Positions 1 through 60,013 of a stretch of 64,000 bases of DNA are shown here, piece by piece. The DNA comes from Obrimoposthia wandeli. Taxonomy: Eukaryota. The stretch lies in contig CDROCS010004434.1 of the NCBI GenBank assembly GCA_977020255.1, positions 62,001-126,000 of the forward strand. Direction: 5' to 3'. Each line of letters begins with the position of its first letter. Positions within the stretch are counted from its first letter, which is position 1. The position numbers were made by a program, and so were the translations under genes. The notes beneath the pieces were generated by a model. That model was not told the DNA's origin. It searched no databases and worked only from the letters and a program-made list of their open reading frames with translations.

Positions 1-30
1 GAGAAGGAAAAGTTCAAGAGAGGCATCTTA

Positions 31-470
31 ATGATAAGATGGCCTAAAGTGAGCTACAGTGAAATTCCACAAGCAGAGGAAAAAGACAAAAAAGATAATT
101 CCAGAAGAATTCTGAAATCTAGGATATCCAATGAGAATCCCAATGCTCCACCACAAGTAGCAGTAACATTGAACGGAAGAGAATATCTTGCCGAAGTTGA
201 TACCGGATCAGCAGTATCAGTACTGAGTAACGAAATCTAGTACCAAAAAGAATTAAGAGAAGTCTGTCCTAGAAACCAGAAATTTGTAAAAGTGAATGGT
301 CCAGATGTAGTGTCGACAGGAAAACTGAAATGTCCATTGAATATAGATGGAAGAGCATTAAAGTTAAATGCTAGAATATTCACAGATTGCGGTAGTCCAG
401 TCCTGATTGGGATGGACGTAATACGAATGTTTGAAGGAATAATTATACTACCAAACAACAAGAATTATAA
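31..470 (+). pseudogene. Retroviral-type aspartic protease, copy 1 (one in-frame TAG at 238-240)
   Basis: LAEVDTGSAVSVLS active-site motif. ORFs 31..240 and 292..747 share a frame, continuing to the C-terminal motif VLIGMDVI. Confidence 0.85.
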
Positions 471-682
471 GAATGACAGTTCAGTGAGAGAGATGAAAAT
501 GTTGAGAGGACATATAGTCGAAAAGGAAAAATGCACTACGTTCCGTATGGGAAGTTCGTACCCAGACAAAAAACAGGAAAGCGCTAGCAAAGTCGATACT
601 TCACTACAAAAATGTAAATTTCGGACCACAAGATACGACGAGGAGAAAAATAACATATGTAAATCTGTCAGAAAGGGATCCC

Positions 683-1700
683 ATGAGATTCGAGAGAAAG
701 AGACGAAATATATTAGAACAGTACTATTCAAAAGGAATGGCACGTAAAATGGCAAGATCAGGTTTAGAAATGTTAAACGCGACAAGCAGTTATGGTCATG
801 AGGAAGTCGTACGATGCGTATGGTGTAGAGTAAAGTTTAGAGAATGGGAACAGAATGAAAACCCAATGAGACGTCATAAAAGAGATGCACCAAATTGTCC
901 ATTTCTTTTGAAACTGAAAACGTCAAACGTACCAGAAATCCAAACGGAAAAAGCACCCGATTTCGATTACAGTGACGGGATTCCAAAAGGAGAATCAGCT
1001 CTAATAACAGGTAGAGTAATAACGAATAGTCGAATTGAAGATATATTCGAAGTTATGCGAGAAGTGAACGAATGTGACGAACAGTATCGAGAAATAACTT
1101 TCGAAGACCCAAGACTTAAAAATTGGCAAAAAGGGACTTTTTGCTATAAAAAAGGATGGTAAAGACGTAATTAAATGCCACAAGTGTAAAAAGGAACGGA
1201 ATTATCGACAGATACACTCTTGAGCTACCTAACAAAATTTTACATCATGAATTTTGCGAATTTTGTACTTTTAAAAACAAAATAAAGCAAAAAGAACAGA
1301 AAACCGAATGTATAATCGAATACCAAATCACACGGAAAGAGATTTTGGCTCAACAAGACACACCGGTAGTGTCATTCGTGAGAAGATTATATCCAAAAGA
1401 AGCAGAAAGAATCAGAGAATTGGTAGAATTAAAAATAAAAACTACGCGAAACGGATACGGATCGATTTTTGAATTACTGCGAGATAAAGACGACAGTACA
1501 ATTGAAACAAAAGAGAAAGAGTACATAAATGAACTGGAATACGTACTAGAAGATCCGTGATGCGCAGTTTGTGGTCAACAAAATAGAAGTTGCCTTTCTA
1601 CCATGCGGACATGTAAGAACATGTCGGAGATGTGCGAATGAAATGGTATCATGTCCGATTTGTCGAAGAATAATAGATCGACAAGTGAGAAACATTAGAT
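683..1700 (+). pseudogene. Inhibitor-of-apoptosis (IAP) module inside Pol: BIR1, degenerate BIR2, C-terminal RING
   Basis: BIR1 CVWC-x16-H-x6-C has exact BIR zinc spacing. A second BIR-like DVIKCHKC...LHHEFC spans frameshifts at ~1150-1270. IAP-type RING reads CAVC.VNKIEVAFLPCGHVRTCRRCANEMVSCPICR at 1561-1670, after a TGA at 1558-1560 and a 1-nt frameshift. Confidence 0.88.
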
Positions 1701-2506
1701 TTCACTATCCAAATATAGGAAGTGGACGGACAGAGTGTAATAATTTGATAAATACAATATACCATATGGGAAATATAAATGGAGCACAGCGACCAGCAGC
1801 TATCATTAGAGTAAATAATTTAAGAGTAAAAGCCTTAATTGATACAGGTGCTGTAGCCTCGATAGTAAGTGAAGACTGTTTGACAGAAGAACAGAAACGA
1901 ACAATGGCAGAACCAGATGAATTCTTGGTATCGGTCAATGGAGACCCTGTTAAAGTGACGGGAATATTACCATGTACATTTATAATTGGACGTAATACGA
2001 TCACTATACCAGTTAGAATCATGAAAGAATGTCCTGAACCTACAATTTTGGGAATGGATGTATTATCACAACTCAAAGGGATAAGTATTGATTTACAAGA
2101 TCCAAGATTGAAGGATAGCACATCAAACAGACAAATAAACCAAATTGATGTAATTATAGAGAATCCTATAAAAATCGGTAAAAGATCGCAATTTCTCATT
2201 CAAGGTCACACATTATCAGAAGATAAAGGACCAGTTGTGTTCGAACCATCACGAGATTTCATAGAGAAATACGAATTACCAGTTGTGAGTACAGTATGCC
2301 TGATCGAAAACCACAAAATACCAGTTAGACTGATGAATACAACCAACAATGACATCCTATTATACAGAGGAATGAGGTTGGGAAAGATAGCACAGATGGA
2401 GAATTCCACTGTATGCGCTATGAAACTCGATAAAGATACGAATGATTACGAAGAAATAGTAATCCAATCAGAAAGACTGACAACTAGAAAAGAAACAATT
2501 ACTTGA
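1571..2506 (+). CDS. Pol fragment: IAP RING fused in frame to aspartic protease copy 2 and the pre-RT beta-rich linker
   Basis: One ORF contains the RING, ALIDTGAVASIVS, PTILGMDVL and the IPVRLMN...LYRGMRLG segment common between PR and RT in Gypsy elements. Confidence 0.85.
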   Translation: MVNKIEVAFLPCGHVRTCRRCANEMVSCPICRRIIDRQVRNIRFHYPNIGSGRTECNNLINTIYHMGNINGAQRPAAIIRVNNLRVKALIDTGAVASIVSEDCLTEEQKRTMAEPDEFLVSVNGDPVKVTGILPCTFIIGRNTITIPVRIMKECPEPTILGMDVLSQLKGISIDLQDPRLKDSTSNRQINQIDVIIENPIKIGKRSQFLIQGHTLSEDKGPVVFEPSRDFIEKYELPVVSTVCLIENHKIPVRLMNTTNNDILLYRGMRLGKIAQMENSTVCAMKLDKDTNDYEEIVIQSERLTTRKETIT

Positions 2507-2529
2507 TCTAATACATAAATTTCCGAAAG

Positions 2530-3980
2530 TAATTGCAAAAATCCATATGACATAGGAGAAACACCTGTCATAAAACATACAATACCACTGACAGAAGACA
2601 AAGTAGTCAGAAGAAGACCATATCGAGTACCATTACAGTTACAAGATGAAGTAAAAAGTCAGATAGAAGATATGTCTAAAACAGGAGTAATTAGACCGAG
2701 TTTTTCAACGCCATTCTCAGCACCTCTGTGGTGCTGGTGTGTAAAAAAGAAGGATGGGAAAATGAGATTCTGTATAGATTTCGAGAGAACTGAACAAGAT
2801 CACAAGAAAAGATGTGTATCCATTACCTAGAATCGAAGAGATGCTCGATAAATTGGGTAATTCAGATTATTTTACGACATTGATTTGCAGAGTGGATACT
2901 GGCAAATCGAGATAGAGGAGTGAAGAGGATAAACACAAACAGCCTTTTCCTGCGGAGATGGATTATACGAATGCGAAAAAAGATGCCATTCGGACTGACA
3001 GGAGCTCCAGCAACATTTTCACGTTGCATGAATTTTGGCCTCACTTGCATCAGTGTGCAAACACAGATGGTTTATATCGATGACATAATAATATTTTCGA
3101 AAACGTTCGAAGAACATTTAAAAAATCTTGAAGTTGTATTTAAAAGACTGGAAAACGCTAAATTAAAAAGTAAAACCTACAAAATGCGTAAGTGCTAAAG
3201 AGCGAGTAACATTTTTAGGACATATAGTATCGAAAGAAGGCATTCGACCTGATCCAGCAAAGATCGAGAAAGTAAAAGCGCATTTAGCACCAAAGACTGT
3301 TAAGGAGATACAGCAGTTTTTTAGGTCTTGCGAATTACTATAGACGATTTGTTGAACATTTTTCAGATATAGCAACACCATTGAGAAAGTTGACGAGAAA
3401 AGATGAGAAGTTCATATGGGGAGAAGAAGCCCAACAAGCGTTCGAGCATTTAAAAGAAAGACTGATAAAAGCACCAATATTAGCGTTTCCAGATATAAAC
3501 CGACAATTCATACTCATGACAGATGCAAGTAACTATGCTGTAGGAGCAGTATTGGGACAAGAGGATGACGAAGGAAGAGAACACGTCATCGCGTATGCGA
3601 GTAGAGGATTAAACAGAGCCGAAAAGAGGATACTCTGTTATCGAAAAGGAAATGTCTAGCCATAGTGTATTCATGTAGACAGTACAGACACTATTTGCTA
3701 GGACAAAAAGTATTCCGGCCTGTATACAGATCACAAACCACTACAGTTCTTGTATAAACATAGAGATGAGATGAGTAGATTAAACAGATGGTTTCTAAAA
3801 TTGGCCGAATTCGATCTAGAAATCCGTTATAGAACCGGAAAGTCGAATGGCAACGCAGATTGTTTATCGAGATTGACAAATGTAGACGAGAAAGGAAACA
3901 TAATTCCAGAAGAAGATAAAACCAATGACCAAAAAGGAGAAGCAAATCTACTGACGATTTTGCTAAAGACGGTAAAATAG
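2530..3980 (+). pseudogene. Reverse transcriptase and RNase H, frameshifted
   Basis: Motifs RRPYRVP, MPFGLTGAPATFSR, YIDDIIIFS, LMTDASNYAVGAVL and NADCLSR are spread over several frames. Confidence 0.92.
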
Positions 3981-4099
3981 ACAAAGAGATCATCAAAGAA
4001 CAGAAAAAGAAGATGAAGAACTGAGTCTAATCAAAGAATTGTTGGTGAAAGGAGATCTAAACGATGAAATGACGAAAAATACTCGATAAAAGAAGGAAT

Positions 4100-5300
4100 C
4101 TTGTATATTGTCAATAATGTCGGAAAGATAGTAGTAGTAATTCCGAAGTCATTGGAAAACAGCAGTGATGATCCAGTATCACGACGGAACACTAGGAGGT
4201 TTACATCTGTCAGGGCGAAAGACAATAGCCAGAATCAAAGAGAAGTACCATTGGGATGGTATGGAAGACGACATAAAACAATGGTGTAAACAATGTAAAG
4301 TATGTTTAACCAGAAAAGACACCGGAACTCGTACTAAAGTTCCGTTGAAACCAATGCCAGTTCCCTTGGCACCAATGGAATTCACAGCGATGGATATATT
4401 GGGACCATTGAGAGAATCAAGTAAAGGAAACAAGTATGTCATAGTATTTACGGATTACATGACGAGATGGGTAGAAGCATATCCCATGCAGAACCAGAAA
4501 GCTGAAACAATAGCGCAAATCTTAGTGGAAGAGATAATATTTCGATACGGAGTGCCTAGAAAGTTGTTAACGGATCAAGGTAAGAACTTCACTGGAGAAG
4601 TCATAAAAGCAGTATTGAAGATATCTGGAATTATGAAGTTACAAACTTCACCATATCATCCACAGACAGATGAATCGGTGGAAAGGTTTAATAAAACTTT
4701 ATGTATGATGGTGACAATCCTATTGCTCAGATAAGCAAGAGGATTGGATAAATATTTACCTTCATGTTTATATGCTTACAGGAATTAGTTCGAGAGGCGA
4801 CAGGTCACACACCATTCTATCTGATGTATCTCAGACAGAACAATATGCCAATGGATCTGGGACTGAGCCAACATCTCAGTACCTAGAAACTGAACAATAC
4901 ATTGTCGTCATGAAGGAAAGATTACAAGATGCTTGGACCAAAGCCGGATTGAAGTTGAAATTCAATCAAGAAGGTTACAAGGAACAATACGACAAAAAGC
5001 AAAACCGCATGAATTTAGAGCCGAGATCAAGTGATGATATTTTATCCAGTCATCGAACCAGGTCTATCGTTTAAACTTCATAGACCATATAAAGGACCAT
5101 ACAAGGTGATCCAGACAACCTCAACAAATTTGAAAGTAATCAACGAAGAGAATCGGAACAAGGAACCGATGATTGTACATGCAAATCGATGCAAATTAGT
5201 ACCAAATAAAGATAATGCGTCACGATATGAGTTAAGATCACAGAAATCGAAATCGAATACCAATACCATTAAACTTACACTATTAATGAATGGTAAGTGA
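4100..5300 (+). pseudogene. Gypsy integrase (HHCC zinc finger, DDE core, GPY/F tail), frameshifted
   Basis: HDGTLGGLH...CKQC, AMDILGP, LTDQGKNF, VERFNKTL and RPYKGPY are all present. Confidence 0.92.
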
Positions 5301-5354
5301 TCGGAACTACATAAACATGATGACGAGTGGTGGCGAAGAAAACCAGAGAACGGT

Positions 5355-8300
5355 ATGCTCAGAATGAAGTACCAAGAGGAAAAGGAAGTAATCCGACACA
5401 TCGCACCACAGGAGATATTAGAAGAAGACGAAGAGATAATAGTCGTTTTCGAAAAAACACAACCAACAGACGTAGCTAAAGAAGTCATTGTGAAAGATGC
5501 ACTAACAAACGAATTTCTGTGCGAACTTAGAGTGTCATACTACGACGGAAATACACTAGTCGCAGCACTTTATCAAAATTCCAATGTGTTTACGACTGAG
5601 AAAGTGATAATCGAAATCACATTGACACCAAACATAGTTGCATGGCAGAACTATGACAGTACTGAAGCAGGACTAGCCAGTCAGGAAGAGAAGGAACCGG
5701 CCGGTGGTCACATACTGCATGGTACACCAAAAAGACTCAAACAAGAATACCACGATGTAATAATGGTATTACGTAATTCACATGGGGAAAGAGATATCAT
5801 GAGAGTCCATTTAATCGACGCTGACACTGAAAAGATAATTTGTCAGATGGACACCAAATATTTTGATGGAAAGACAATTGTATGTTGTATACCAGAATCT
5901 CACCGGTTAGACACAGATCAAACGGAAGTATCTGTAAGGTTGAGCGTAATAGAAGGATTCCATTCGCCAACTTATCCGGAAGTGACTAACAATAAAATCA
6001 TCAAAGCAACGGCAGAGTTACGCATTGACAGCGGATACCGGAAGTGGGAAGCTAAAAATAAAAAGCCACAAAGAATCAATATGATCCGAGAACAAGTAAC
6101 AACTTCAAACCAGCCAAAATATCATGCTGAAATAGTATCATCCGCGCCAAGTGTAATTACATCGATAAACGACGAAATTATAATTTTACTAAAAAATCGA
6201 TGGCCGTCATCAACCGAGATACGAGTAAACTTAATTAATTATGCGAAGACACCGATATCTAAGCTGAATGTTACCTATTTTGATGGATTGTCCATCATGG
6301 GTAAATTGGAAACAATTGTCATGTGCTATGGAGCACAGTTCCAAGTTGAGATACTTAAAGATAGTGTAATACCGTATCCGATTCACAAATACGAAGGGGA
6401 AATCAACCCAATTATTCTAACCCCTTCATTAATTTCAGTTCAAACAGACATACCAGAATACCCTTCGAGCGAGTCTAGTGAAGACAGCGAACCGGAAAGT
6501 AACGATACAGAATCAACAGAATCCGAAGATAACATAATAGAGCGATTCGGAAGAACCATTGAGGTTGAATTCGCTAAAGAGAGCAGAAAAAGACAAAACA
6601 TAGAATTCGTGAAACAGAATATACAAGAAAGACGAATTAAATCTGCAGAAGAGACCGAGTCGGAAGAAGACTCAACAAAGAAACAAACATCAGAGACAAA
6701 GATGAATATCTCTCCAGCAATACGAATGCTGAGAGGAAAGAAATTGGCGAAACTATCCAACATCGACGAACAAATAGAGAAGAGATTAGAAAGACTAAAA
6801 CTTGAAGAGTCAGAATTAATGCCACCAATGAGTGAGATCATTCCAGGTAAGTTATACCTCGGAAATGTGGAGGATGCAACAGATGAAAAGAAACTGTTGG
6901 AACAAGGGATAACATATGTGATCAACGTTACAATGAATCACAAATCGCAATATCAGACGATCAGAGCTATGACATTAAGAGTAAAAGACTCAATGGACGC
7001 TAATCTTCTCGAATGGTTTGTAGAAACAAACGAAATACTTCACAGAGAACTCCGAAACCGAGGAAAAGTGTTAGTACATTGTCAGAAAGGAATTTCTCGA
7101 TCAGCAACCCTAGTATTAGCATATCTAATAAAGACTAGACGAATGCAGGTACTAGAAGCGTTAAAATACCTACAGGAGAGAAGAAGTATTGCAAACCCAA
7201 ATCTTAATTTTTTGGGACAGTTGGCAAATTACCAACTTCTGTTGCAAGAACAAAGACGGATGGACGACATTCCTGAGGATCCAAAGGAAAAGAATTTCCT
7301 CCAAGCATTATCATTGACCGGGTTATTTTTAGCCGGAGTCGATAAAATCACACAGATAATGCCAAAAGTATTTTTATGTCATCCAGGAGATATAGATACT
7401 GCTGGATTAAAGTTCCATAGTATCAACCGAGTAATCAACATTGTTGAAGTCGGAAACGAGATAATTAGTCTGTGTCAAAATACTGAAGATGACACCATTC
7501 GATACATACATGCTTCCAATCGAGAGATAAACGATGCACAACAACATCTGACGAAATTGACTCAAACCATCCAAGCTGAAGTCACAGAAGGAAACGGCGT
7601 TCTGATATATCAGAAAAAAGGTACAATGTTAGCGCCTACCATAGGTGTATCCTTGTTGGTAGAGTACCATGGTCATACGCCAGAAGAAGCGATGGTCTAC
7701 ATCAAACAGAATAGACCAAATACGGAATTCAAACCGTTACTCGTTCGAGAAATAGAGAAATACACCGAAAAGAGGAAACAACAACGAGAAACAAATGAAG
7801 CTACAACAACAGTGCCCAGCTTTCAATACCAAAGATTGCTAGCGATAGGCTTGTTAAGTTGTTTAATGCCGATAACGGGAGCACAGGAGATAGGCTCCAA
7901 CCACGGAAATAGTTCCTGGTTCAACGAAATCCACAATTACACCATAAAATACCATACACCGGCACTGATGATGTTATTAGTATTGTTAGGACTAATTGAT
8001 GTATGGATCATCCGAATATGTCTTCGATCTATGAGAACCGACAGTAAAAGATTTCAGTTTGTAAAGATGAAAAGACCAAATGGACCAACGAACAAAGTGC
8101 TTGTGTATCTAGACGAAAGGATCGAAGACAACATAGTAAATGAAGCGATATTTTACCCACAAAACAGAATACTGAATCAATTCCGAATAGATTACGAAGC
8201 TGACCGACAGCGCACACTTGACCGAATATCAACAACATTCGCCGGATGCAAGCGAAGAAAACGAGTTGTAAAGGAAATACAAAAAGATGCTGATACAAAA

Positions 8301-10496
8301 GGACCAACGTATATATTCGATGGCGATGTCATCAAAACACGTGAGTATGGAAGTAAGAGAGTGATAATTGAAACGATGGAAGGACATAGAACATGCTTGT
8401 CCGCAAAAAATGGATTCGGAAAGTTGACGATACAAGGTAAACCAGTACAGTTGATTATCGGACGAGATGGAATCGAGGAGATGTCAAAACAACGACAGAC
8501 AACAAAACGAACCAATCAGAAACAGATATCTCTCAAACGATTGATAATTAAAACCCTTTGCAAAAGGTCAGTCAAGGCTCTGTGCACCGTTGCACAAGGA
8601 TTGATCTATGGAGTAGTAATTGGATTGGTACTGCAAGCCATGCCAACCAGTAAAGCCGAATTGATGACACTATCCGAATATAATTTACATTTGAGAAATC
8701 TAGACAACACCCTAGAAATAATCAAGACATCCCACAGTAGAGCCGTGATGATCATGTGTGTAAAAGGATGTCCAGGACGAATGTGTATAGTCCCAGCGAC
8801 CGAAATGATAACACTTAATGGACATTATGGAGTTAGTGTTGTCACATGTGAAGACTACATATTTGGACAAACTAAAATAGTGCTTCTCAGTGACATGTCC
8901 AACCAAAGTGCACACAAATTTAGAATATTAACCATCAAGAGTAAAGGAATACCAGCAGTACGTTATGGTATTCTAGAATTGGTTAATCCAATACTGGCAC
9001 TGATCATTGGATTTATAATATTAATATTACTCATTTTGTTTTGTTGTTCAAAGATAGAGTCGAGATCAAAAAAGAAACGTCATGACCTCGCAAGACGAAC
9101 AGGTCAAATGAACTTACAAAAATTCAACACAATTATACCAAGACCACCATTTCTAGATGAACCAGCACCAGAGTACCAGCCAACGATATATGAACATATT
9201 GAGGAAAGACCGTACTATATGAGTAATTTGACTTGTTTCATTGAAGTTCCTGAGTTTAGGAATCGAACGATCATAGGAATCATGCTGATCGTACAAATCA
9301 CCACTACCAAGGCTAGTTATGAGATCATGATCAGTAAATGGAGACAAGACGTAATACGGGCAATATACATAGAAATTCCCTTACTAAAAACAAATCACGT
9401 AGTAGACATTCATCTACAGACGTCAGCAACTGACAATATCGATCAGAAATTGTATGTCATCCGACAGGTCAGAATAAAAATCCACCAAAATACACCCGTT
9501 TACAATTTAATATTATTGTATCATGAAAGAGTGTTATACCTACGGATAACAATATCAAAGAGGAAGCGGATTATCCAAAGTATCCGAACAAAGTCATTAA
9601 TATTACCTAGAGATGAGCGCATCTGGAAAATTGTCGACAGGATTATGATCACAGGTAGACGACGTAAAGCCGTATGGAATTCCGTTAGGATATTTTTCAG
9701 ATTGCTAGAAACTGACAGCGTGACAGTAATGAGTCCCAACCCAGATGGCGTAATCAGATTCGAAATCCAAAGCCAAATGTTAGTACCACATTTTAACACA
9801 GAATGTCTGTGTAATCGAATTGCCAGTAATTCTACAGAGACCTCGACCATAATCATGATAATAACAGGTGAAATATTCTACATAACTCTAAGATACCAGA
9901 ACCGTCGATTTCGTAGATACGGTATAAGTATCAAACCCAGGAAAATCATTCCCAGAAGACCAATCCTAGTCAAAAAGAAGGCAAAGGTAATCGAAAGTAA
10001 ACGCCATTCCAAAAAACCGACAGTGATCAGAACAAAGACAGAAGCGAAAGAAAAAGAGCTAAATCCCAGAAACCAAAGTACAATTATTAAGAAGACAAGA
10101 GTGAGGGGAACGATCCCACTAGATCCCAAACATCATTTCCAATCCAAAATAATAATACCTGTTCCATCAGAAACAAAACACCCAAATCCCCGAATTTTTA
10201 GAAAATCGGACATAATACATGGAAACCGATCAAAACCCATGGAAATGTCATTCGAACCAACAAACAACAAAATGAAGTATGATTATAAATCATCAGACAG
10301 CGGAATAACAGCGGTCAATGCCCTAATTGGAATGGCCGTAGTGTCAACAGCAGTGGTTTTATTGACAATCGTGCGTAAAAGGCAGTCACCAGTATGCCCA
10401 GGAATACGACGAAAATGCGAAGGATTGCGATGCTGTGACACACCCATCATGGAGGAAGTGGAATTAGACTTACCTCCGCCTCCCATCAAGATATGA
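5355..10496 (+). CDS. 1713-aa cargo polyprotein: three beta-rich repeats, dual-specificity phosphatase, pseudo-phosphatase, serial signal-peptide/TM (env-like) region
   Basis: Uninterrupted ORF. DUSP fold at ~6828-7245 (LYLGN, VHCQKGISRSATLVLAYL, NPNLNFLGQL). Second DUSP-like copy at ~7345-7770 lacks the catalytic Cys (LIYQKKGTMLA). Hydrophobic segments at ~7830-7885, 7960-8025, 8570-8660, 8990-9050, 9265-9315 and 10310-10375. Confidence 0.85.
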   Translation: MLRMKYQEEKEVIRHIAPQEILEEDEEIIVVFEKTQPTDVAKEVIVKDALTNEFLCELRVSYYDGNTLVAALYQNSNVFTTEKVIIEITLTPNIVAWQNYDSTEAGLASQEEKEPAGGHILHGTPKRLKQEYHDVIMVLRNSHGERDIMRVHLIDADTEKIICQMDTKYFDGKTIVCCIPESHRLDTDQTEVSVRLSVIEGFHSPTYPEVTNNKIIKATAELRIDSGYRKWEAKNKKPQRINMIREQVTTSNQPKYHAEIVSSAPSVITSINDEIIILLKNRWPSSTEIRVNLINYAKTPISKLNVTYFDGLSIMGKLETIVMCYGAQFQVEILKDSVIPYPIHKYEGEINPIILTPSLISVQTDIPEYPSSESSEDSEPESNDTESTESEDNIIERFGRTIEVEFAKESRKRQNIEFVKQNIQERRIKSAEETESEEDSTKKQTSETKMNISPAIRMLRGKKLAKLSNIDEQIEKRLERLKLEESELMPPMSEIIPGKLYLGNVEDATDEKKLLEQGITYVINVTMNHKSQYQTIRAMTLRVKDSMDANLLEWFVETNEILHRELRNRGKVLVHCQKGISRSATLVLAYLIKTRRMQVLEALKYLQERRSIANPNLNFLGQLANYQLLLQEQRRMDDIPEDPKEKNFLQALSLTGLFLAGVDKITQIMPKVFLCHPGDIDTAGLKFHSINRVINIVEVGNEIISLCQNTEDDTIRYIHASNREINDAQQHLTKLTQTIQAEVTEGNGVLIYQKKGTMLAPTIGVSLLVEYHGHTPEEAMVYIKQNRPNTEFKPLLVREIEKYTEKRKQQRETNEATTTVPSFQYQRLLAIGLLSCLMPITGAQEIGSNHGNSSWFNEIHNYTIKYHTPALMMLLVLLGLIDVWIIRICLRSMRTDSKRFQFVKMKRPNGPTNKVLVYLDERIEDNIVNEAIFYPQNRILNQFRIDYEADRQRTLDRISTTFAGCKRRKRVVKEIQKDADTKGPTYIFDGDVIKTREYGSKRVIIETMEGHRTCLSAKNGFGKLTIQGKPVQLIIGRDGIEEMSKQRQTTKRTNQKQISLKRLIIKTLCKRSVKALCTVAQGLIYGVVIGLVLQAMPTSKAELMTLSEYNLHLRNLDNTLEIIKTSHSRAVMIMCVKGCPGRMCIVPATEMITLNGHYGVSVVTCEDYIFGQTKIVLLSDMSNQSAHKFRILTIKSKGIPAVRYGILELVNPILALIIGFIILILLILFCCSKIESRSKKKRHDLARRTGQMNLQKFNTIIPRPPFLDEPAPEYQPTIYEHIEERPYYMSNLTCFIEVPEFRNRTIIGIMLIVQITTTKASYEIMISKWRQDVIRAIYIEIPLLKTNHVVDIHLQTSATDNIDQKLYVIRQVRIKIHQNTPVYNLILLYHERVLYLRITISKRKRIIQSIRTKSLILPRDERIWKIVDRIMITGRRRKAVWNSVRIFFRLLETDSVTVMSPNPDGVIRFEIQSQMLVPHFNTECLCNRIASNSTETSTIIMIITGEIFYITLRYQNRRFRRYGISIKPRKIIPRRPILVKKKAKVIESKRHSKKPTVIRTKTEAKEKELNPRNQSTIIKKTRVRGTIPLDPKHHFQSKIIIPVPSETKHPNPRIFRKSDIIHGNRSKPMEMSFEPTNNKMKYDYKSSDSGITAVNALIGMAVVSTAVVLLTIVRKRQSPVCPGIRRKCEGLRCCDTPIMEEVELDLPPPPIKI

Positions 10497-10620
10497 TGAG
10501 TCAGGAGGAGGTTGTAGATAAATTAGTGTGTGAAATATGTAGAAATATCTAGAAGCGATTGTACAAATAGTAGAAGTATATAAAACTCATGTAGAAATTA
10601 ATCATCATCATGTATTTAGA

Positions 10621-10920
10621 ATGGCCGAAGAATGCCCAATATGTTTGGAAGATCTAACCGAACGAAGAACAAGACCCGAAACCTGCAACCATTTACACCA
10701 CGAGGAATGTTTATCGACATGGATCAGAACTTATGGACAGTTCGGACACCCAACATACCCTCGTTGCCCTGTATGCAGAAGACAATTCGCAAGATTCGTC
10801 ATGTTAGAACCCAACCAAGAGGATGTATATGTACAGGTGGTATTCTGTTGGAAGAATTTCGGAGAGTGTTGGTGTTATTACTGTTTGTCAGATCGACAAA
10901 ATCAGACCACTTTTGTGTAA
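10621..10920 (+). CDS. Small RING-H2 putative E3 ligase, copy 1, with C-terminal CWK..CWCxxC motif
   Basis: CPIC...CNHLHHEEC...W...CPVC pattern. TATATAAAA at ~10577 and TTTAG immediately 5' of the ATG. Confidence 0.8.
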   Translation: MAEECPICLEDLTERRTRPETCNHLHHEECLSTWIRTYGQFGHPTYPRCPVCRRQFARFVMLEPNQEDVYVQVVFCWKNFGECWCYYCLSDRQNQTTFV

Positions 10921-10980
10921 ACATCACACAACCACCAGTCCTCAATCGAGCCCAAATTCAACATCAACCCTCCCACAGTA

Positions 10981-11310
10981 ATGTCTGGAGAATGTTCCAT
11001 CTGCTACGAGAGCATCGTGGACTTCTACACCAAGCCCAACAACTGCGACCACCTTTTCCACGTCGAATGCCTCGAGACGTGGATCCCCATCGCAAACAGC
11101 AACAATCCCCTCGACTTCCCAACCTGCCCGATGTGCAGAGCGACTCTTCTCAGTACACTACGTGTACAACCAAGACAGCCTCCAAGCAGTGGTACCCATC
11201 GTACACTGCTGGAAAACCATCTGCGATTGCTGGTGCTCGTTCTGCGTGGAGGAGCGAAGCACAGGCCAGCCCAATCCCCAACAATAATCGAAGGTAACTT
11301 TCTGACTTGA
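10981..11310 (+). CDS. Small RING-H2 putative E3 ligase, copy 2; C-terminal Cys motif is frameshifted
   Basis: CSIC...CDHLFHVEC...W...CPMC pattern. An alternative frame at ~11190-11260 reads VVPIVHCWKTICDCWCSFC, matching the copy-1 tail. Confidence 0.78.
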   Translation: MSGECSICYESIVDFYTKPNNCDHLFHVECLETWIPIANSNNPLDFPTCPMCRATLLSTLRVQPRQPPSSGTHRTLLENHLRLLVLVLRGGAKHRPAQSPTIIEGNFLT

Positions 11311-11627
11311 ACGTGACATCATGAACTACCCTGTGTATCGCATACCGCGATAAATTAGCTACCATAATTGTAATCATAATTATATAATCTTGTGAACTGT
11401 AAATTGACCATTACCATTTTTATGTATGATGTTTAACTGAAATTGTAATTATTATACTGAATTTCTAAAAAAGACAATTTTTATGCTTAGTGTGAATGCG
11501 TAAACATGCCTAAAATCTAAACAAAACTCGGTAGGATTAGATAACTAAGGATTCATTTTGAAATAAAATTTAAATTAACGATGAGAACGGTGAACCCCAA
11601 ATTGAAAGGAGTTATTTTCTCATGCAG

Positions 11628-12112
11628 ATGAAGTGCGCTGTATGCATGGAGAAAATTTGGGCGGTATCAGCATCCCCTGTCGGCTGCCGCCACAAATTTC
11701 ACGAATCCTGCCTATATACTTGGGCCCGACTTCGACCCGAAGGACATGTCAATTTTTGCCTTTCGCGGAATGGACACTACAGTGTCGAGGGCGCCACAAG
11801 GGCACCCATTCGCTCACCAGCTGTATTGGTGGCGAGCACTGCCATTGCCCCGACTGTATCGCACGCCGTCGCGATGCAAAACTCGCCCTCCGCGAGAAAT
11901 ACCGGTCAACTCGCGACCCCCGCTCATGGCAGCGTGGCCGTCAAATATGGCTCGGAAATCGCGGAATACACGGGCGATATACTACCATTTTCCACCCGAG
12001 TCAACACCTCACCATGCGCCAGCAAATGTTACTATACAATGGCGGCCCACCATCGTATCCGGAACTACCACTGGAGCAGGTCTTGCTGTTCCTGAAGGAC
12101 AGGAACGGTTGA
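11628..12112 (+). pseudogene. RING-H2 protein, copy 3, frameshifted
   Basis: MKCAVCMEK...GCRHKFHESCLYTW, then a frameshift near 11755 into the frame with HCHCPDC that ends at 12112. Confidence 0.7.
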
Positions 12113-12692
12113 CAGATCTCAAACATTCTTGTGACATATCCCAGACAATCTTGTGACATATCCCACACCCTCAATAATTTTGTGTGTAAATTTTTAGTTG
12201 TGTATAAATAATAATGTATGGTTTGAGACTTGCTCCAAATTATATATTATGTTTCCCACTAAAAACCGGAATTTTGGAAAATTTTTTTTTGGGCATGTTT
12301 GTTGAAGTTGAATGATTGATTTTGTAGGGATGAACCTAAAATCAACAGCCAAAGGCTTATTTAAGTAAAATCGATACGTTCCGGGGACGTAACTTTTTTG
12401 GAACCCCCGAGGTATGTTAAGGTCGAGAAATAAGAAAATTAAATATTTTAGTCGATTAAATACTAAAATAAAAATCCTTGAAAGCAAGGTTGAAAATTAA
12501 ATTAAAATATTAATTTTAGTTTTAAAAATTAAAATTAGTGGAATTTAGGGTAAAAATTAGGAGGACCACGAAGGTCGTGTATAATGTGAAAATGTATAAA
12601 AGTTTAAAGTTAATTAACCAAAAGGACAAAAATTAATTAAGGAGAAAATCAGACAATTAAGAATTAATTCAGAAAAGAGAAGTTAATTAAAC

Positions 12693-13006
12693 ACGTCAAT
12701 CAAGGATCCAAAGGTAAGCACATTTTCGTGCAGTAAAAAACTAAAATCTTATTTTGCAGCCGTCATTGATTGACAGGAGATACCAGTTCTCCTACTTCCA
12801 CAATTGTTCTTATTTTGCAGCCGTCATTGATTGACAAGAGATACTAGTTCTCCTACTTCCACAGTTGTCAGCCGTCAATTGATTGACGTCCAGTGCCTCT
12901 ATATAAGGCAGTATCTAGAAACCCACAATCACAACTACAAGTCGACTGGAAAAAAAGAAGAAGCAAGTAGACAGAAGACAATCCCCTCGACCACGAATCG
13001 GTAAGT
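12693..13006 (+). promoter_or_regulatory. LTR promoter: four TGATTGAC motifs, TATA box, ATG-less leader and splice donor
   Basis: TGATTGAC at 12767, 12828 and 12880, inverted at 12693-12702. TATATAA at 12900. G|GTAAGT at 13000/13001. Confidence 0.6.
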
Positions 13007-13050
13007 GGTGATTTGGGACAGAGGTAAAATTAAAATTATTTAGATTGCTG

Positions 13051-13600
13051 AAAAAGTGAACCAATATTCGAGAACCAATAGTTTGAAATATCATTGACCA
13101 ATATTTGAAATATAAAAAGTGAACCAATATTCGAGAACCAATAATTGAAATATCATTGACCAATATTTGAAATATAAAAAGTGAACCAATATTCGAGAAC
13201 CAATAGTTTGAAATATCATTGACCAATATTTGAAATATAAAAAGTGAACCAATATTCGAGAACCAATAATTGAAATATCATTGACCAATATTTGAAATAT
13301 AAAAAGTGAACCAATATTCGAGAACCAATAGTTTGAAATATCATTGACCAATATTTGAAATATAAAAAGTGAACCAATATTCGAGAACCAATAATTGAAA
13401 TATCATTGACCAATATTTGAAATATAAAAAGTGAACCAATATTCGAGAACCAATAGTTGAAATATCATTGACCAATATTTGAAATATAAAAAGTGAACCA
13501 ATATTCGAGAACCAATAATTGAAATATCATTGACCAATATTTGAAATATAAAGTGAACCAATATTCGAGAACCAATAGTTGAAATATCATTGACCAATAA
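13051..13600 (+). repeat. Tandem array of ~9 copies of a 62/63-bp unit, each with three CCAAT motifs
   Basis: Anchor GTGAACC at 13056, 13119, 13181, 13244, 13306, 13369, 13431, 13493 and 13553. Confidence 0.95.
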
Positions 13601-13763
13601 CGCGAAAGAAGTCGAAAGTCACAGTGACTTTGAGGACGATTCCGCCAGACTTACAATTTATCTCTGGAAAGAAGACGATCCCACAAGTTCGTCAAAACCA
13701 CCTACGGACCCTACATCGGACAGCATACTAGTCGCAGCGTATTGGTAAGCCAACCGACTAGAG

Positions 13764-14200
13764 CATTCATTGCCCCTAGTTGGCAATTAGGATACTGTCA
13801 TTACCCCTTGTTGGTAATTCTACATTTTAAATTAATACACAAATTCATTGCCCCTAGCTGGCAATTAGGACAACTCGACTCTTTAACACAATCATTGCCC
13901 CTAGTTGGTAATTAAGATCGGACATTTATTCATTGTCCCCAGCGACAATTAGGAATCCTACCCAGACGTTTTACCTGTAAGATTCATTGTCCCTAGCTGA
14001 CAATTAGGTTCATTCATTGCCCCTAGTTGGCAATTCGGATAAATACTCATTGTCCCTAGTAGACAATTCGGTAAGACTCATTGTCCCTAGCTGACAATTC
14101 GGTTCGTTCATTGTCCGTAGTTGACAATTAGGAGTAAGTTTTCATTGTCATCTTGACAATTAGTTTTTTAGGAGATCCATTGTCACAGTAGACAATTCGG
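13764..14200 (+). repeat. Array of 12 short inverted repeats, ATTRYC-N5-7-GRYAAT, with variable spacers
   Basis: Arm variants ATTGCC/GGCAAT, ATTGTC/GACAAT and ATTACC/GGTAAT all keep pairing. Loop is mostly CCTAGYW. Confidence 0.9.
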
Positions 14201-14794
14201 GTCAAACACACACAGATAGAGTTAAGGAACAAAGAAACATTTAGCTAGAGATAAGAAGTAGGAGCGAAGAAATTTAAGAGAGTTGCGTTATAGATTAACC
14301 AACCTGAGTAAGAAGACTAAACCTAAGAAACTTAATCACCTGAACGTAAAATCGATACGTGGTTCATCCCCACTTCTTGTAGAGACTTACAGAAGTCCTT
14401 TAGGAATTTTATCATACTTTTTAGAAATACGTACATAAACGTATTGTTGTGTTAGTTACGTGAATTACGAATAAACAATTTCCTACATTAGAACAAGTTG
14501 TTTTTACACTCTTCAGACTAAGAGACATCAAATCAAATACCTTCAGATAGTACAAGAGATTAGGCAACCATAACACTAAGTAGGCCACGACCAACTTTAA
14601 GACCTGCTTCTAATCGAACTCACGTTGGGGCCCTCCGCATTCAAGAGGCTCTATACCAAGTTTCGTATAGAAACCCCAACAAAATGAATGAATGACGCAG
14701 AATAAATGACGTTATGGAGAGTCGATAAATACACATCCGTGGACACATTCATAGAAACATGTTCTATTATTGTATACATATTTATTAATTAAAC

Positions 14795-21895: not shown

Positions 21896-24069
21896 CAGTG
21901 GTTCTCAAACTTTTTTAAAAAATATGCTTTGCGGTCCATTTGAAATTGCGTACCCGGCCAACGGACCCCTGATCAGTAATATTGATTAGATATATTTAAA
22001 TAATAAAAATTTAAGTACATTGTCCATGAACATTAAAAAGAATAAATTTTAATATTTAATTTTGTAATGAATGATGAAAATTATAATTGTAATTTAATGA
22101 AAACGAAAATAATTAATGAGATGGATGTTCTTGCTTACCATTTGATAGTTCAGTAATTCTTGGTTCTGTTTTAGATAGAGCACATCGTAAGTCATCGCAA
22201 ACATAAAGTCTGTTTATGGATTTTGTCTTTGTATGGACAAGTGCTGAAAATGCTGCCTCACATTCGTAAGTTGTTGGAAACGGCATGAGTATTCGAAAAA
22301 CCATTTTTGAGATATGAGGATAGCTCTGTGCCATTGCTACCCAAAATTCAGTTGTCGAAACTTCTCTAAACTTCATTTTGGCTGAACCATCATTGATAAG
22401 TTCTATGAATTCTTCTTGAACCACCAATTCATCAGTTGGTATCATTTCACCATCAAAATTGAACGGATTTATTATGAGTTCATTGTAGATATCAGCATCA
22501 TTTAGTGTAGGAAATTAGCGAGAGATCTCATCTTTAAGAGTAGAAAGGTGCTCTTTGATTGCTTCGTGCAAAGGATTATCAGCAATAATTGTTATGTTTG
22601 TTTCATCCAAGTATGAATTGAATATAGGAAACATAGCATAATTACTTCGTGCAGTCTTCTTTATCCAGAGTTCAATTTTCATTTGAAATGCTTTAAATTT
22701 TTCATTGCAGTCGATGACAGTAATATTCTTTCCTTGTAAGGACAAATTAAGAACACCCAATGCTTCAAAGATGTCCACAAGATAAGCCATTGAAGACAAC
22801 CAAGCAACATTGCTGAATTTTTTGTGCAATGCATGATCAGAATTTTCCAGAAATACTTTTATTTCACCACGAAGTAAAAATGCTCGCTTTAATGCTTTAC
22901 CTTTCGACAACTACCTCACATGTGTGTGTAACAGTAGTGTCTCGAAGTCAGCACCATTTTCATTGCATAATGATGCGAATAGACGACTATTGAGAGAATT
23001 TGCTTTTATGACGTTGATTGCTTTTATAACTTCATTCATCACAGTCTTCAAATGATCAGGTAATGTTTTAGCAACCAGAGCTTGTCGATGTATGGTGCAA
23101 TGAATTCCAATCACTTTTGAAGATCTCTCCTTCACAAGAGTCTGAAATCCAGATCTACATCCTACCATTGTAGGTGCACCATCTGGGCAAACTTCACACA
23201 AGTTTTCCCACTGAAGTGAATGTATTTCAAAGAAATTTACAACTTTCGTAAAAACTTCCTTGGCTGTAGTTCTGGTTTCAAGATTTTCACAAAAGAGGAA
23301 TTCATCTTCGAAATCTCCATTATATATATAGCGCACAAATACACAGAGCTGTGCAAGATTTGCTATATCTGTGGTTTCGTCGATCTGTATTGAAAATAGT
23401 CCAAATTTTGATTCTTTGATTTTTCCAACAACTTGTTCAATAATATCATGTGACATAACTGTGTCGTTAGACAACGAAACCATTTTCAATTTTGTACTAA
23501 CATCTTCATCAAGAATAAGTGAGATAATATCTTTGCAAGCTGGAAGAATTAAGGTCTCACCAATGTTATGTGGCTTTCTGGATCTTGCAATTCTCTGTGC
23601 TACTCGGTAGGAAGCTTCAACACCAGCTGCATTAGATGTAGCTGCATCTCCTTTTGAATCAAACCTTGATCTTACCAAATGTGCTTCAAGCCGTTTGAAA
23701 TAATCTATATATTTTCCATTGTATTTCTTGTGCTTCGTTTCCAGATGACGTTTCAGTTTACTTGGTTTGAGAGATGATTCTGAAAGTACTTCAAAACAGA
23801 CAACACATTGTGGCTTTACCACTTCTCCCTGGGCGATCTCAGTAAATCCAAATTGAATGTATGACTCGTTATACTTTCTCTTCTTGCTGTCCATGTCTAG
23901 TGTCTAAAATCAACGAGAATGATAATGAATAAAAAGAGAAGATTTAAATCAATATTATTATTGACAAACAGTTAAAGCTTACAAAGTTGAATATAATTTT
24001 TTGTCACGGACCCCCTATCTTACTGTCACGGACCCCTGGGGTCCGCGAACCCCACTTTGAGAACCACTG
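21896..24069 (-). mobile_element. hAT (Buster/Charlie-type) DNA transposon with disrupted transposase
   Basis: 14-bp TIR CAGTGGTTCTCAAA at 21896 and 24056-24069. Flanks GACTAGAT/CTTTAGAT resemble a diverged nnnTAnnn TSD. ORFs 22911-23894, 22515-22910 and 22113-22445 carry the CVVC...RHLETKH zinc finger, IDETTD, DGAPTM and CEAAFS. Confidence 0.92.
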
Positions 24070-45661: not shown

Positions 45662-48600
45662 AGTTATGTAATCAGAAACCGGAATTATCTTACTTTCGAT
45701 AATTTGTTAGGGAACTGATATTTTATAATCAGAATATAAATTGTGTTGTGAAATCTAAGATTTGAATTATGTCTACGATAGAAAACATAACTGGCGATCA
45801 CGCCGAAATAAATGTAATGACGAGAAGTCAATCAAAGAAGAATATCCTCGAGACTATGCCTAAAGAACAAAGAATGATGTTCCAGTATAACATAAGAAGA
45901 TACGATGGAATGAGTTCAAAGGAAGGTGAACAATGGTTAAAGGATATAGGAGAATGGGTTGACGCAAATCAGATTAATATTGGAGATGCATTTAAGTTGC
46001 TGTTGACCGAAGATTATTATGAATAGATGCCAGTGAAAGATTAAATTCAGATATCGAAGTCAAAAATATGGTTTGAAGAAAATTTCCTAGAAAGGAAATC
46101 CATAGTTGACAAAGTTTGCGAACTTGCAGACGTAAAGCAAGTAGAAGGTGAGCGTTTCTCAGCGTTCAGCATTAGAGTGAAAAAACTCGTTGATGCTATG
46201 ATGGAAAATAATGTTAGCAAAGATGAGCTGACTGACGCATTAAGATAGAGTAAGAAGTGAAGACCTAAAGGAGCAGTTTTTATTAAAACCAATGATGCCA
46301 AAAGAAGAAATTAGAGGCGATGGCAAAGCTGTACAGCGAAATCGAGAAAAGAATACCGTGATTGCACAAATTCATAATACGTATGCAAATACAGTAAAAA
46401 GAGAATTCAACCGTTCTGACAACCGTCATTTCACAAACAATACAAAGAAACCAGTATCAGTACCAGTACATCAGGAACAAAGAAATTATGTTAATGAATA
46501 AAAAGGATACATAAATAGAGACGCCAAAAATCAAAATAATAGGAGACCAATGCCAAGGTTTTCTTTAAAATAAATAGCTAAAAGAAAATATAACTTAGCT
46601 AAGGGACTGCCTGTCACAAAAAGTAAAGAACTTCAACCAGGAAGATGTTTTTGTTGTGGTGAAAAAGGTCATTTTCGAAATCAATGTCCTCTCAATCACA
46701 AATGTTTGATTTGCGGAAAAGAAGGTCACAATTTCAACAGCTGCTAAATTTTAAAGAACCTACATCAAACTACAAGAGTACTTTGTATAACAGAAGAAGC
46801 GAAAGGAAATAATCAAAATTTAGAAGATTGTAATAATGATGACATGATAATACATTATGTTAATCAGGGATACGTGAGCGATCCCATTGCTCCCATTTCG
46901 TCGGTGGGATCGAGCATATAGAACCAAAGCGGAATGAAAAGATGTATATGAAGAATGATGGTCGTGAATGGAGTATAATGAAGATTAATGATGTAGATGT
47001 AGAAATGCTGTGGAACTCCGGAGCATCAGTTAATGTAATGAGTAAGAATTGTTGGAAGAAAGTAGGATGTCATAAAATGAGACAGAGTAATTTATATTTG
47101 AGTGGAGTTTTTTTCGAATAATCATGAACAGCCTTTATCATTACTAAATTGTTATGGAATGGAAAGGAGAATGTTTTGGAAATAATCTTTGTAGAAGAAA
47201 TTAAACCAGAATTTATTGGTGTAATCGATACAATGAAAACATTTGGAATAAAGCTGCAGGAAGTATGTAATATGGACTTGTCTTGCATGATGAAAACGTT
47301 TTCCTCGAATAAAGAACATATAAAATATGTAATTCTTTAAAATGCGATAGAGACTCAATTTTAGGACATTATATTGTGAAATTTGGGAGAATATTTATGT
47401 GTTCTAAATTTGATCTAGGATATACCAAAATTGTCTCTCATAAGATTGAGACTATTGCCAATCCTATGTGCCAAAATTCTAGATGACAACCGATGCTTTT
47501 AGAAAACCAAGTTGATGAAATGATTGAAAATGTACTCAATGTAAACGTAATTAGGCGTTGTGAAAGTCCTTGGAACTCGCCATTGGTCATTGTGAAGAAG
47601 CTAGACAATACAATTCGAATGTGTGTTGACTACAGACAATTGAATGCTGTAACCTAGAAGTTTACATTTCCAATACCGGATGCACAACTCTTGTTCGATT
47701 CTATAGGTGATGCTAAAATATTTACGACATTAGATATTGGACAAGCTAATTTTCAGGTAGATCTAGAGAATGAGTCTCAGGGAAAAACGGCTTTCAGTAC
47801 AAAATTAGGACGATTTTGTTTCAATCGCATGCTATTTGGGTTGGCTACAGCACCGGCAACATTCCATAGTTTTGGGGTAAAATATTGTATGGTTTGTTGT
47901 TCAAAGGAACAATTGTATATCTAGATGATATCGTTGTTTATAGTAACAACCAAGAAGAACATTATAAATTATTAAGAGGTATTCAAAAGAATTGCAGCAG
48001 CAGGCCTTAAAATAAACCCTAATAAATGCTACATTGACCAGAAACAGTTAAAATTCCTAGGTCATATCATAACAGAAAGCGGAATACATACAAATCAGTC
48101 GAAAGTCAACGAAATTATAAATTTTAAAGAACCAGATTGTAGTGAAAAATTAAAATCATTTTTAAGAATGGCAAACTATTATCGACGATTTATTAAAGAT
48201 TATGCAAATATTTCAGCTCTACTATATGTAGCGGGGTCTGGAGATAAGAAGTCAATACAAACAAGTTTTGAACTCCTGAAAGAAAAATTAACAACAGCTC
48301 CCATATTAGATTTCCCCAGGTGAAATAGAAAATGTATAATTGATACAGACGCAAGCTTTGGTGCGATTGGGACAGTTTTGAGCCAACTGGATGAAATGAG
48401 AAACGAAAAAGTGATTGTGTACGCTTCAAGACATTTGACTTTCCCTGAGAAAAGATACTGTGTTACCAGAAAAAAACTTTTAGCAGTATACGAATTTATT
48501 ATGCATTTCAAACAATATTTATATGGAACTGAATTTTTGGCAAGAACACATCATAAAGCATTAGTATTTTTAAGAACGACTAGAAAACCAATCAGTCCTC

Positions 48601-51406: not shown

Positions 51407-51919
51407 GTTATAATTACAGGTATTTTTCAATTTTTATTAACAAAATTAAAATTATTTTAAAGATAAAAATGTTTGGAAGATAATTGTAGAATACAAACTG
51501 TTATGGGCAAGAGGCATTTTGTGATAAAAATTATTTTTTAACATTTAATTTTTTTAATATTAAATAAATATTTTAAAATTTTTGGATCAAAAGTTAGTAA
51601 GTTATATGTTTTATCTGTTTGTGTAAAAGTTGTACGAAAAATTGAAATTGACTGTATAGCATAATATTTAATATAAACTGTAGATATTGCAGCGTAATTA
51701 GTAAATTTAAATAGTGAACAAAATTTCTAATATATTTTTACTTGCACATAATTTATAATACATTTTAAGATATGTTCTTCTCGTTATTCAATTAAATCAA
51801 AGTAATTACATTTTAAAAATACGGTATTTTATGTATTCGAAAATAATATTTGTTCATGCTTAGCACAGCTTTTGTTTAAATATTCGTTATTTACGTAATT
51901 TTTAAAAATATTGAACGTT

Positions 51920-58855: not shown

Positions 58856-60013
58856 TTATACGTTGTCTACAATAAAACATTCATCGGAGTCGGAGTCGGA
58901 GTCTGTTATCTCACTTGGGATACTCAACAAATCGTTTAGACGAAATTCCTCCACCAGTCTATCTCTACGTTTTTCAAAAACTCGCTTGATATTCTTGGTA
59001 TCCTCTAAACATGTGTGAATCTTCTTCTGTGTTTCTTCTCCAAAATATTTTGATATCATTGTCTTTAATCCTATTTTTGGATGGTTATGGCCAAGTTCTG
59101 TTCTTATTTCAGTTGATGCACCCAGGTCCACGATTCTAGCAAAATGTTGTTTTTCTAGTCTTAATACTTTCAAATCATTTTCTAATCCTGCACCTATCAA
59201 AACATTTCCTACTAATATTGATTGTGCTTTTTCAATGACTTCCTCTGCATCAGTTTTTCCTGTCAAAGATTTTTCGGTGAAACCAGTTATAAACTTAACA
59301 TAATTTCGTATTCTTTCTCTTGGCGTTACTATTTCATGTAATACAATCTGATCTTTTTCATCTATGATTGTAATGCTAGCCAATGTTTGTTTTTTGTCTA
59401 CCGTGATGGCCATTTCGCAATCCATGAAATATTTAATTGGAGTTTTTGATATATTTGCATTTTCTAAAAACATTATTTTATTCGTTTTCCAGATTAACTC
59501 TATAAAAAATGTATTTCTTCTGGGACTAAATTTTAGGAGATATTCGCTTCTTAATTCTTTTTTATCAATGGTATAAGAATGATTTTGTAAAAACATGTTA
59601 CTTAATTTCTTTTCTTGTTTACTCATTAAATGGGCTCTTCCTTCTGCCACATGAATTTCTATTTCTTCTACGTCTTGTAAATCTCCTACTAATTCTGATA
59701 AATTTATTCTTACATTTTTGGTGTGGTGCATAGTAAAAATTACACTTTTTCTGCTAGTCTTTGTAATTTTTAATTTATTAGGAATATGCGTTTGGTCTTG
59801 GAATATCTGTTTTCCTTCTCCATTTTTAAAATATCTATTGCTATACTGTCTTAATCTTCTATATAGGAATTTCGCAAAAATGTTCATTGTTGGAGTGCAT
59901 AATGGTTCTTCCTCTAAACTATTGGTAAGGTCTACGACTGATGGTGAAAAATCGTCCAAACAACTTTCCCCTACAACTCGGATCCATTTCCGTTTGTTTG
60001 TTGAGAACTCCAT
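58856..60013 (-). CDS. DEDDh 3'-5' exonuclease (REX4/ISG20-like) with unknown N-terminal domain
   Basis: ExoI FMDCEM, ITGFT, ExoII IGAGLENDLKVL and ExoIII HTCLEDT. Intact 385-aa ORF. Confidence 0.85.
   Translation of the reverse strand: MEFSTNKRKWIRVVGESCLDDFSPSVVDLTNSLEEEPLCTPTMNIFAKFLYRRLRQYSNRYFKNGEGKQIFQDQTHIPNKLKITKTSRKSVIFTMHHTKNVRINLSELVGDLQDVEEIEIHVAEGRAHLMSKQEKKLSNMFLQNHSYTIDKKELRSEYLLKFSPRRNTFFIELIWKTNKIMFLENANISKTPIKYFMDCEMAITVDKKQTLASITIIDEKDQIVLHEIVTPRERIRNYVKFITGFTEKSLTGKTDAEEVIEKAQSILVGNVLIGAGLENDLKVLRLEKQHFARIVDLGASTEIRTELGHNHPKIGLKTMISKYFGEETQKKIHTCLEDTKNIKRVFEKRRDRLVEEFRLNDLLSIPSEITDSDSDSDECFIVDNV

Follow-up and report, generated by a model that had tools for sequence, protein, structure and literature searches.

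Burro1 (GYPSM1) carries BIR, ankyrin, MATH, ubiquitin-like, BCL2-like, in-frame env, and dUTPase-like domains in a single frame of 4,873 aa (PMC6431247). Its B-IAP, composed of a BIR and a RING, is reported to guard planarian stem cells against caspase-dependent apoptosis (PMC13465017), and the idea of an anti-apoptotic factor within the polyprotein of a retrotransposon is already published for Burro1. Homologs of IAPs were also noted in adintoviruses (PMC8502044).

The window analyzed here is a stretch of 64,000 nucleotides, positions 62001 to 126000 of contig C4434. One LTR pair with TG...CA ends, a primer binding site (PBS), and a 4-bp target site duplication (TSD), AAAT, enclose an element of 23,982 bp. 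The 5' LTR (contig positions 52700 to 54842), the PBS, gag, and env are located upstream of the window, between positions 52700 and 62000 of the contig, and the 3' LTR is within the window. Both LTRs are identical at 2,142 of 2,143 aligned bases. The primer tRNA for the PBS had one genomic match, which was not called by ARAGORN. With its PR-RT-RH-IN order, the TG...CA LTRs, the TSD, and the PBS, the element is a Ty3/gypsy LTR retrotransposon. It is best filed as a Burro-like giant gypsy element and not as Burro1 itself because it measures 23,982 bp and gave no ankyrin or MATH matches. The features of the window copy are listed in Table 1.

Table 1. Features of the element copy in the window, all positions referring to the window
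Feature	Position	Strand	Evidence or remark
Protease 1, env-proximal retropepsin with xIGMD motif	151..447 (DTG 199-207)	+	Match to PF13975 in natural copy L014, E 1.1e-7
BIR1 with intact zinc ligands; its surface residues vary strongly between copies	689..925	+	PF00653, E 5.7e-11
Degenerate second BIR (BIR2-like), C-C-H-C kept, last helix shortened	1085..1266	+	hhalign against canonical BIR profile, 93%, E 2.9e-7
UBA-like helical domain between BIR2-like and RING	1309..1485	+	hhalign against IAP UBA profile, 95%, E 4.9e-8
IAP-type RING and tail	1561..1702	+	PF13920, E 1.7e-9; best PDB matches cIAP1/cIAP2/XIAP RINGs
Predicted protease junction INTI, which would free the IAP C terminus and the protease 2 N terminus	1748..1759	+	Motif learnt from relatives only; low specificity
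Protease 2, canonical Pol-proximal retropepsin	1793..2092 (DTG 1841-1849)	+	PF13975, E 1.8e-8; PF00077
Conserved segment upstream of RT, following protease 2	2120..2420	+	27-47% identical to the counterpart in all 20 RT-bearing relatives
RT, RNase H, integrase	2570..5200	+	PF00078, PF17917, PF17921, PF00665; many frameshifts in the window copy
C-terminal part of the polyprotein, separate frame only in the window copy	5301..10496	+	PF00782, E 1.1e-40, two stretches
Three short accessory RING-finger ORFs	10543..12095	+	PF13639, E 5.3e-10, 5.9e-9, 5.8e-5
3' LTR, TG...CA	12415..14681	+	LTR pair

In the window copy, a DTG protease is followed by a BIR, a BIR-like segment, a RING, a second DTG protease, and then by RT, RNase H, and integrase. 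The proposal made from the sequence alone, that an IAP resides within Pol between two aspartic proteases, was thus confirmed in this order by the motifs and Pfam matches of Table 1. Both proteases have conserved the DTG and a downstream hydrophobic-G-x-D motif and share 30% identity with each other. The top matches of a fold search with BIR1 were the BIRs of XIAP and the cIAPs; the peptide groove of BIR1 is presumably only partly canonical, if the assumed XIAP BIR3 numbering applies. The segment described as BIR2-like had no Pfam match and was recognized as such by its profile match, and the UBA-like domain aligned weakly with the UBA region of cIAP1. The BIR2-like and UBA-like profiles were built from ten related IAPs, with cross-controls at 0.1% and 0.6%. 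Because these profiles confirm the second BIR and add a UBA-like domain, the module between the proteases is, as judged by profile comparison, a full BIR-BIR-UBA-RING IAP. The predicted model of the IAP had a mean pLDDT of 56 and was confident only for BIR1, the BIR2-like domain, and the UBA-like domain, with values below 50 for the RING; a RING homodimer prediction without alignment scored 0.01 and yielded no usable dimer model. The conserved segment downstream of protease 2 had no Pfam match. It occupies the same place as the dUTPase-like domain of Burro, a label taken from PMC6431247.

Upstream of protease 2, the frame of the window copy is broken by stops and frameshifts, as had been stated: the stops are at positions 238, where protease 1 is interrupted, and 1558, and the frameshifts near 580, 1122, 1132, 1199, and 1571. 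The BIR2-like domain is frameshifted, and the stop at 1558 together with the frameshift near 1571 hits the RING. Of the single open frame claimed to run from the RING to protease 2, positions 1550 to 2506 are indeed open, a stretch that begins midway in the RING and includes protease 2, but the first two cysteines of the RING are in another frame. The suggested origin of the TGA at 1558 from CGA did not hold and is unlikely, because an arginine is read at that column in none of the 82 copies. Between window positions 1 and 5400, the stretch compared contains 22 frameshifts, the highest number among the 82 copies, and 19 of these are unshared; the region from 5301 to 10496 has no break, and the two LTRs differ at a single base of 2,143. 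The frameshift excess in window positions 1 to 5400 is therefore likely due to local assembly errors.

At least 150 copies of the element are present in the genome, and the matches listed from the protein search were all 100% identical over 210 aa. The 82 copies examined were taken from two sources: 30 matched the window best, and 52 came from a set of 103 that matched a distant IAP. Both protease motifs were found in 77 of these 82 copies, and in 44 of the 77 one natural open frame holds both motifs, which are 548 codons apart in 38 of the 44 open-frame copies. Natural frames of 5,478, 4,645, and 4,088 codons were found, so that the continuous ORF expected for sister copies exists in natural copies. 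The frame of 5,478 codons contains, in this order, Gag, one CCHC knuckle, a weak ubiquitin-like domain (Pfam E value of 0.13), env (PF24664; E value of 3.5e-95), protease 1, the IAP, protease 2, RT, RH, IN, and two phosphatase domains. In the polyprotein of contig C2129, residues about 1105 to 1280 form a helical segment that contains an NGGW motif and is placed between the ubiquitin-like domain and env, in the position of the BCL2-like domain of Burro; this segment had no PDB match, and its single-sequence model reached a pLDDT of 38.

The part downstream of the integrase, which is continuous with Pol in the natural copy on C2129, contains a dual-specificity phosphatase (DUSP) with an HCxxGxSRS motif, another DUSP-like domain lacking the Cys motif, and hydrophobic segments. 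The tandem DUSP domains, at window positions 6852 to 7754, the first with an intact catalytic motif and the second without, were not found in the 21 relatives compared. In one marine metagenome run, pieces of the element of up to 965 bases were present, mostly 95 to 99% alike, which, coming from a single run, is no more than a hint that the host is marine. Contigs of three sequencing runs provided no usable junction and no sign of splicing. A search for homologues among longer proteins gave no match, which is weak evidence.

Outside the element, a host eIF3d gene is located at window positions 51899 to 53709. Its product shares no more than 50% identity with named animal proteins, 47 to 49% with echinoderm eIF3d, and 78% with three unnamed proteins. 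The window contains another gypsy element on the minus strand (58856 to 63418), whose ORFs downstream of the integrase include one that appeared exonuclease-like by eye. Further RNase H fragments (48324 to 50443) and a transposase-like ORF (22911 to 23903) are located on the same strand. Copies of cox1 on two large nuclear contigs read best under table 9, which, together with the identity of less than 50% between this eIF3d and its echinoderm counterparts, makes a flatworm host likely. The assembly also holds foreign contigs, as indicated by cox1 genes of bacterial type and by another cox1 of animal type on C5352.

The reading favored here, which is probable but by a considerable distance not certain, is that of a 24-kb, many-copy, env-bearing Burro-like Ty3/gypsy element with a frame of about 5,480 codons, in which an IAP between two intact retropepsins is likely cut free and likely acts as an anti-apoptotic ubiquitin ligase. 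A single protease is usual in LTR elements, and the polyproteins of Ty3/gypsy elements mature by means of the element's own proteases. Because of this mode of maturation, the proteases of the element may be expected to cut the IAP out of the polyprotein at junctions of the family type. The C-terminal cut would be near INTI, so that the product would continue for about 20 residues after the tail Phe; the N-terminal cut was not located, and the stretch from protease 1 to BIR1 contains no clear junction site by the motif of the relatives. The released IAP would act as an anti-apoptotic ubiquitin ligase that keeps the host cell alive, and, by analogy, it likely works as the B-IAP of Burro1 does. 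One IAP would be made per Gag/Env/Pol, which would tie cell survival to the expression of the element.

Evaluation of the constraint on the domains needs to consider how omega was obtained: it is a tree-free count of the variants per codon column that were shared by at least three of the 82 copies, and these copies were chosen by similarity. It was 0.07 for protease 1 as well as for protease 2, 0.08 for the RING, 0.13 for the UBA-like domain, 0.24 for the BIR2-like domain, 0.46 for BIR1, and 0.03 for RT, and 0.47 to 1.45 for singleton variants, stops included. The DTG motif was kept in 77 of the 82 copies in protease 1, the other five all being singletons, and in 80 of the 82 in protease 2. 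Both proteases and the RING are under purifying selection. In BIR1, 9 of 80 codons possess at least three shared amino-acid alleles, and 18 of 160 codons do so if the preceding segment is included. Polymorphic zero-fold sites account for 62 of 306 in BIR1 plus this segment versus 13 of 1,046 in the core, a 16-fold difference (p = 5e-30), and compared with the four-fold sites (86 of 334, p = 0.11) they are about as polymorphic as neutral sites. The variability of BIR1 fits relaxed or diversifying selection, between which the test does not discriminate. Relaxed constraint explains it equally well because the variation does not exceed the neutral baseline, and positive selection on BIR1 is not supported, the variation being no larger than that of the four-fold sites.

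These values bear on an alternative function in which the IAP, released or still partly fused, would not block caspases but ubiquitinate proteins of host defence or signalling, or products of the element itself, with BIR1 as a substrate-binding surface in an arms race. The excess of zero-fold polymorphism over the core next to a constrained RING would agree with such a function, as would the phosphatase, the three additional RINGs, and the putative ubiquitin-like domain of the same element. However, relaxed constraint accounts for BIR1 to the same extent, and the module published for Burro1 is reported to be anti-apoptotic, so that this function appears unlikely, even if it is the strongest competitor of the released anti-apoptotic ligase.

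The protease pair itself was compared in 21 relatives: 17 of the 120 matches listed, which carry the env family, two close unnamed matches, and two from a separate search. An RT is borne by 20 of the 21, and three of these 20 are incomplete at the N terminus. Two proteases before the RT were present in 10 of the 20 RT-bearing relatives, and the cargo between them consisted of C2H2 fingers (four), ankyrins (one), or unannotated inserts of 78 to 162 residues (five); the first protease of the relative with the ankyrin cargo reads DTA. No BIR or RING motif was found in the relatives compared. A protease after the integrase was present in eight relatives. In the relative represented by P0013 and P0096, one protein has four clear protease domains downstream of env, and the other has two more upstream of the RT. 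The pair occurs in 10 relatives that lack an IAP, so that the earlier view of a pair dedicated to the IAP is not supported. The protease pair before the RT is, judging by these sequences, a trait of the lineage and a cargo slot rather than an IAP-specific excision device. A shared origin of the pair with that of the relatives is likely. In the protease tree, in which the row of P0013 at 469 is a spurious match, the accessory proteases of the relatives cluster with loose support (88/87), and protease 1 of the element is unplaced; the element sits in an unresolved fork of the trees. A literature search by title gave no publication on a duplication of the gypsy protease or on an exchange of IAPs with Polintons, and Grohme 2018 and Lee 2026, with their figures and supplements, may already report a second protease or explain where the IAP originated.

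The position of the C-terminal cut depends on the tail of the RING. Among 141 IAP-like RINGs of the library, the tail comprised 13 residues in 117, and Phe or Tyr occupied position 11 in 118. The RING of the retroelement is internal and not C-terminal, its tail has Ile or Val at position 11 and Phe at position 13, and the linchpin Arg and the tail Arg equivalent to R606 and R614 of cIAP1 are kept. The Phe at position 11 of cIAP1 is needed for ubiquitin transfer (PMC6349121). The sequence-only reading had regarded the two proteases as a dedicated excision device with a precise cut after the tail Phe, between the F and the H of RFHY, which would generate a canonical aromatic C terminus. In accordance with this, the Phe at position 13 matches the length of the 117 library tails, the stand-alone P0006 ends exactly at this Phe, and FHYP is unchanged in 79 of the 82 copies; the aromatic-Pro bond two residues past the Phe, which resembles the type-1 sites of retroviruses, was also counted in its favor. 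Such a cut is nevertheless unsupported, because the IAP genes of the Polinton-like elements described below share the F-H bond and continue for five residues past the tail Phe; three other stand-alone relatives were likewise counted as running on (+6 in P0002, +14 in P0003). The junction motif was learnt unsupervised from 60 junction windows of the relatives (score of 504 versus 390 to 427 for five shuffles) and is low in specificity, with many top matches inside folded domains. By this motif, all 6-mers across RFHY scored negative, from −5.7 to −18, and INTI/YH, about 20 residues past the tail Phe, was in 12th place when the 6-mers of the 5,478-aa frame were ranked. With the protease pair present without an IAP in the 10 relatives, a dedicated device is improbable. 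For the favored release of the IAP near INTI, the missing aromatic residue at position 11 and the tail extended by about 20 residues, more than in Polinton (+5) or the other stand-alone (+6, +14) tails, count against release or activity.

That the arrangement arose by nested insertion, or that decayed copies carry it as a neutral passenger, may be dismissed as highly improbable: the many breaks in the window copy and the low identity between the proteases would agree with this, but the single LTR pair and the single 4-bp TSD around everything, enclosing together with the PBS the entire 23,982 bp, rule out that the proteases come from separate nested elements, the frame is open in 44 of 77 copies, and every domain is under purifying selection.

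By a BIR search of the same genome, free-standing IAP ORFs in multiple copies were located next to genes for a packaging ATPase (PF04665), an integrase, and a capsid-like ORF (PF21738, weak), in one case also beside a pPolB. By this gene content, the free-standing IAP ORFs can be assigned to Polinton-like elements. Their products are 32 to 36% identical to the IAP of the retroelement over the module, and the RINGs are 64 to 73% identical at the DNA level. The top BLAST score to the retroelement IAP was that of P0002, an unnamed protein, and the second that of a Polinton IAP. In the whole-module tree, a quick version compatible with either direction of transfer, the retroelement IAP falls into one group with those of the Polintons and with three stand-alone proteins that are unnamed, and 33 IAPs of the cellular type are separate from this group (SH-aLRT of 100); the RING tree has few columns. 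A Polinton-like unit on C609 (145755 to 160039) and C777 (L109, L110, L118, and L119) has 4-kb inverted repeats, each with a 341-codon IAP ORF, and an inner ATPase-integrase-capsid block in opposite orientations between the two copies; no DNA polymerase ORF was seen inside this unit. Many of the best 150 BIR matches listed in the genome lie in 341-codon frames. In a second Polinton-like family (C3067, C2440, C472, and C3291; L111-L113, L116, L117, L120, and L121), an IAP of 293 to 301 codons without a second BIR is located directly upstream of the packaging ATPase, and a pPolB ORF is near a truncated IAP copy in L116. Polinton-like ORFs (ATPase, capsid-like) are also located just upstream of the 5' LTR of the retroelement, at positions 32001 to 47300 of contig C4434.

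Since the IAP is shared with Polinton-like elements of the same genome, gene exchange between the retroelement and DNA viruses is pointed to as its source, beside host capture. A free-standing IAP gene may have been inserted into an already existing slot between the two proteases. A broader model is possible but doubtful: the enveloped giant clade would possess a swappable slot between two active and specialised proteases, the IAP would be exchanged with Polinton-type viruses of the same genome and released in each Gag-Env-Pol round, and BIR1 would be in an arms race with the host death machinery. The two-protease lineage trait, the Polinton-borne kin of the IAP, and the tail and junction evidence against a cut within RFHY go beyond the published record found. 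In this lineage, selection maintains two or more proteases while the cargo between them changes. The presence of at least 150 near-identical copies, with the variation concentrated in BIR1, makes the release of the cargo and the role of the second protease testable.

Compared with the cellular IAPs cIAP1/2, XIAP, and DIAP, the IAP of the element has the same BIR-UBA-RING domain order, RING sequence, and linchpin Arg but differs in that the RING is not C-terminal, Ile instead of Phe or Tyr occupies position 11 of the tail, and the second BIR is degenerate. The IAPs of the Polinton/Maverick (adintovirus-like) elements belong to the same subfamily, with the pre-BIR segment, the UBA-like domain, and the VRN[IV][RK]FH tail. 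Unlike the retroelement IAP, they are encoded by separate ORFs of 293 to 341 codons, each terminated by its own stop and neighbored by genes for packaging ATPase, integrase, and capsid, their second BIR is shortened or lost, and one family resides inside 4-kb inverted repeats. Unnamed env-bearing giant gypsy polyproteins (P0033, P0189-P0208, and others) resemble the element by an RT that is 57 to 71% identical, by the PF24664 env, and often by two proteases before the RT; unlike the element, they contain C2H2 fingers, ankyrins, or short inserts in the slot and neither BIR nor RING, and several have a protease after the integrase.

No named Burro sequence was among the 120 matches listed, and Burro1 was compared by its description. 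The element is 24 kb in size, Burro1 more than 30 kb; it had no Pfam match to ankyrin or MATH at an E value of 0.5, whereas Burro1 carries both, and it contains phosphatase and RING cargo after the integrase, unlike Burro1. Two proteases surround the IAP in the element, a feature that is not mentioned for Burro1 in the text of PMC6431247. On the other hand, both are giant Ty3/gypsy elements with a polyprotein of about 5,000 aa that contains Gag, CCHC, a ubiquitin-like domain (putative in the element), and an in-frame env between gag and pol, followed by a BIR, PR, the segment between PR and RT, and RT-RH-IN, and both possess a module of BIR and RING; like Burro1, the element likely resides in a flatworm. 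The env of the element belongs to PF24664, kin of the mononegavirus-type fusion glycoproteins, and is placed in frame between gag and pol as in Burro.
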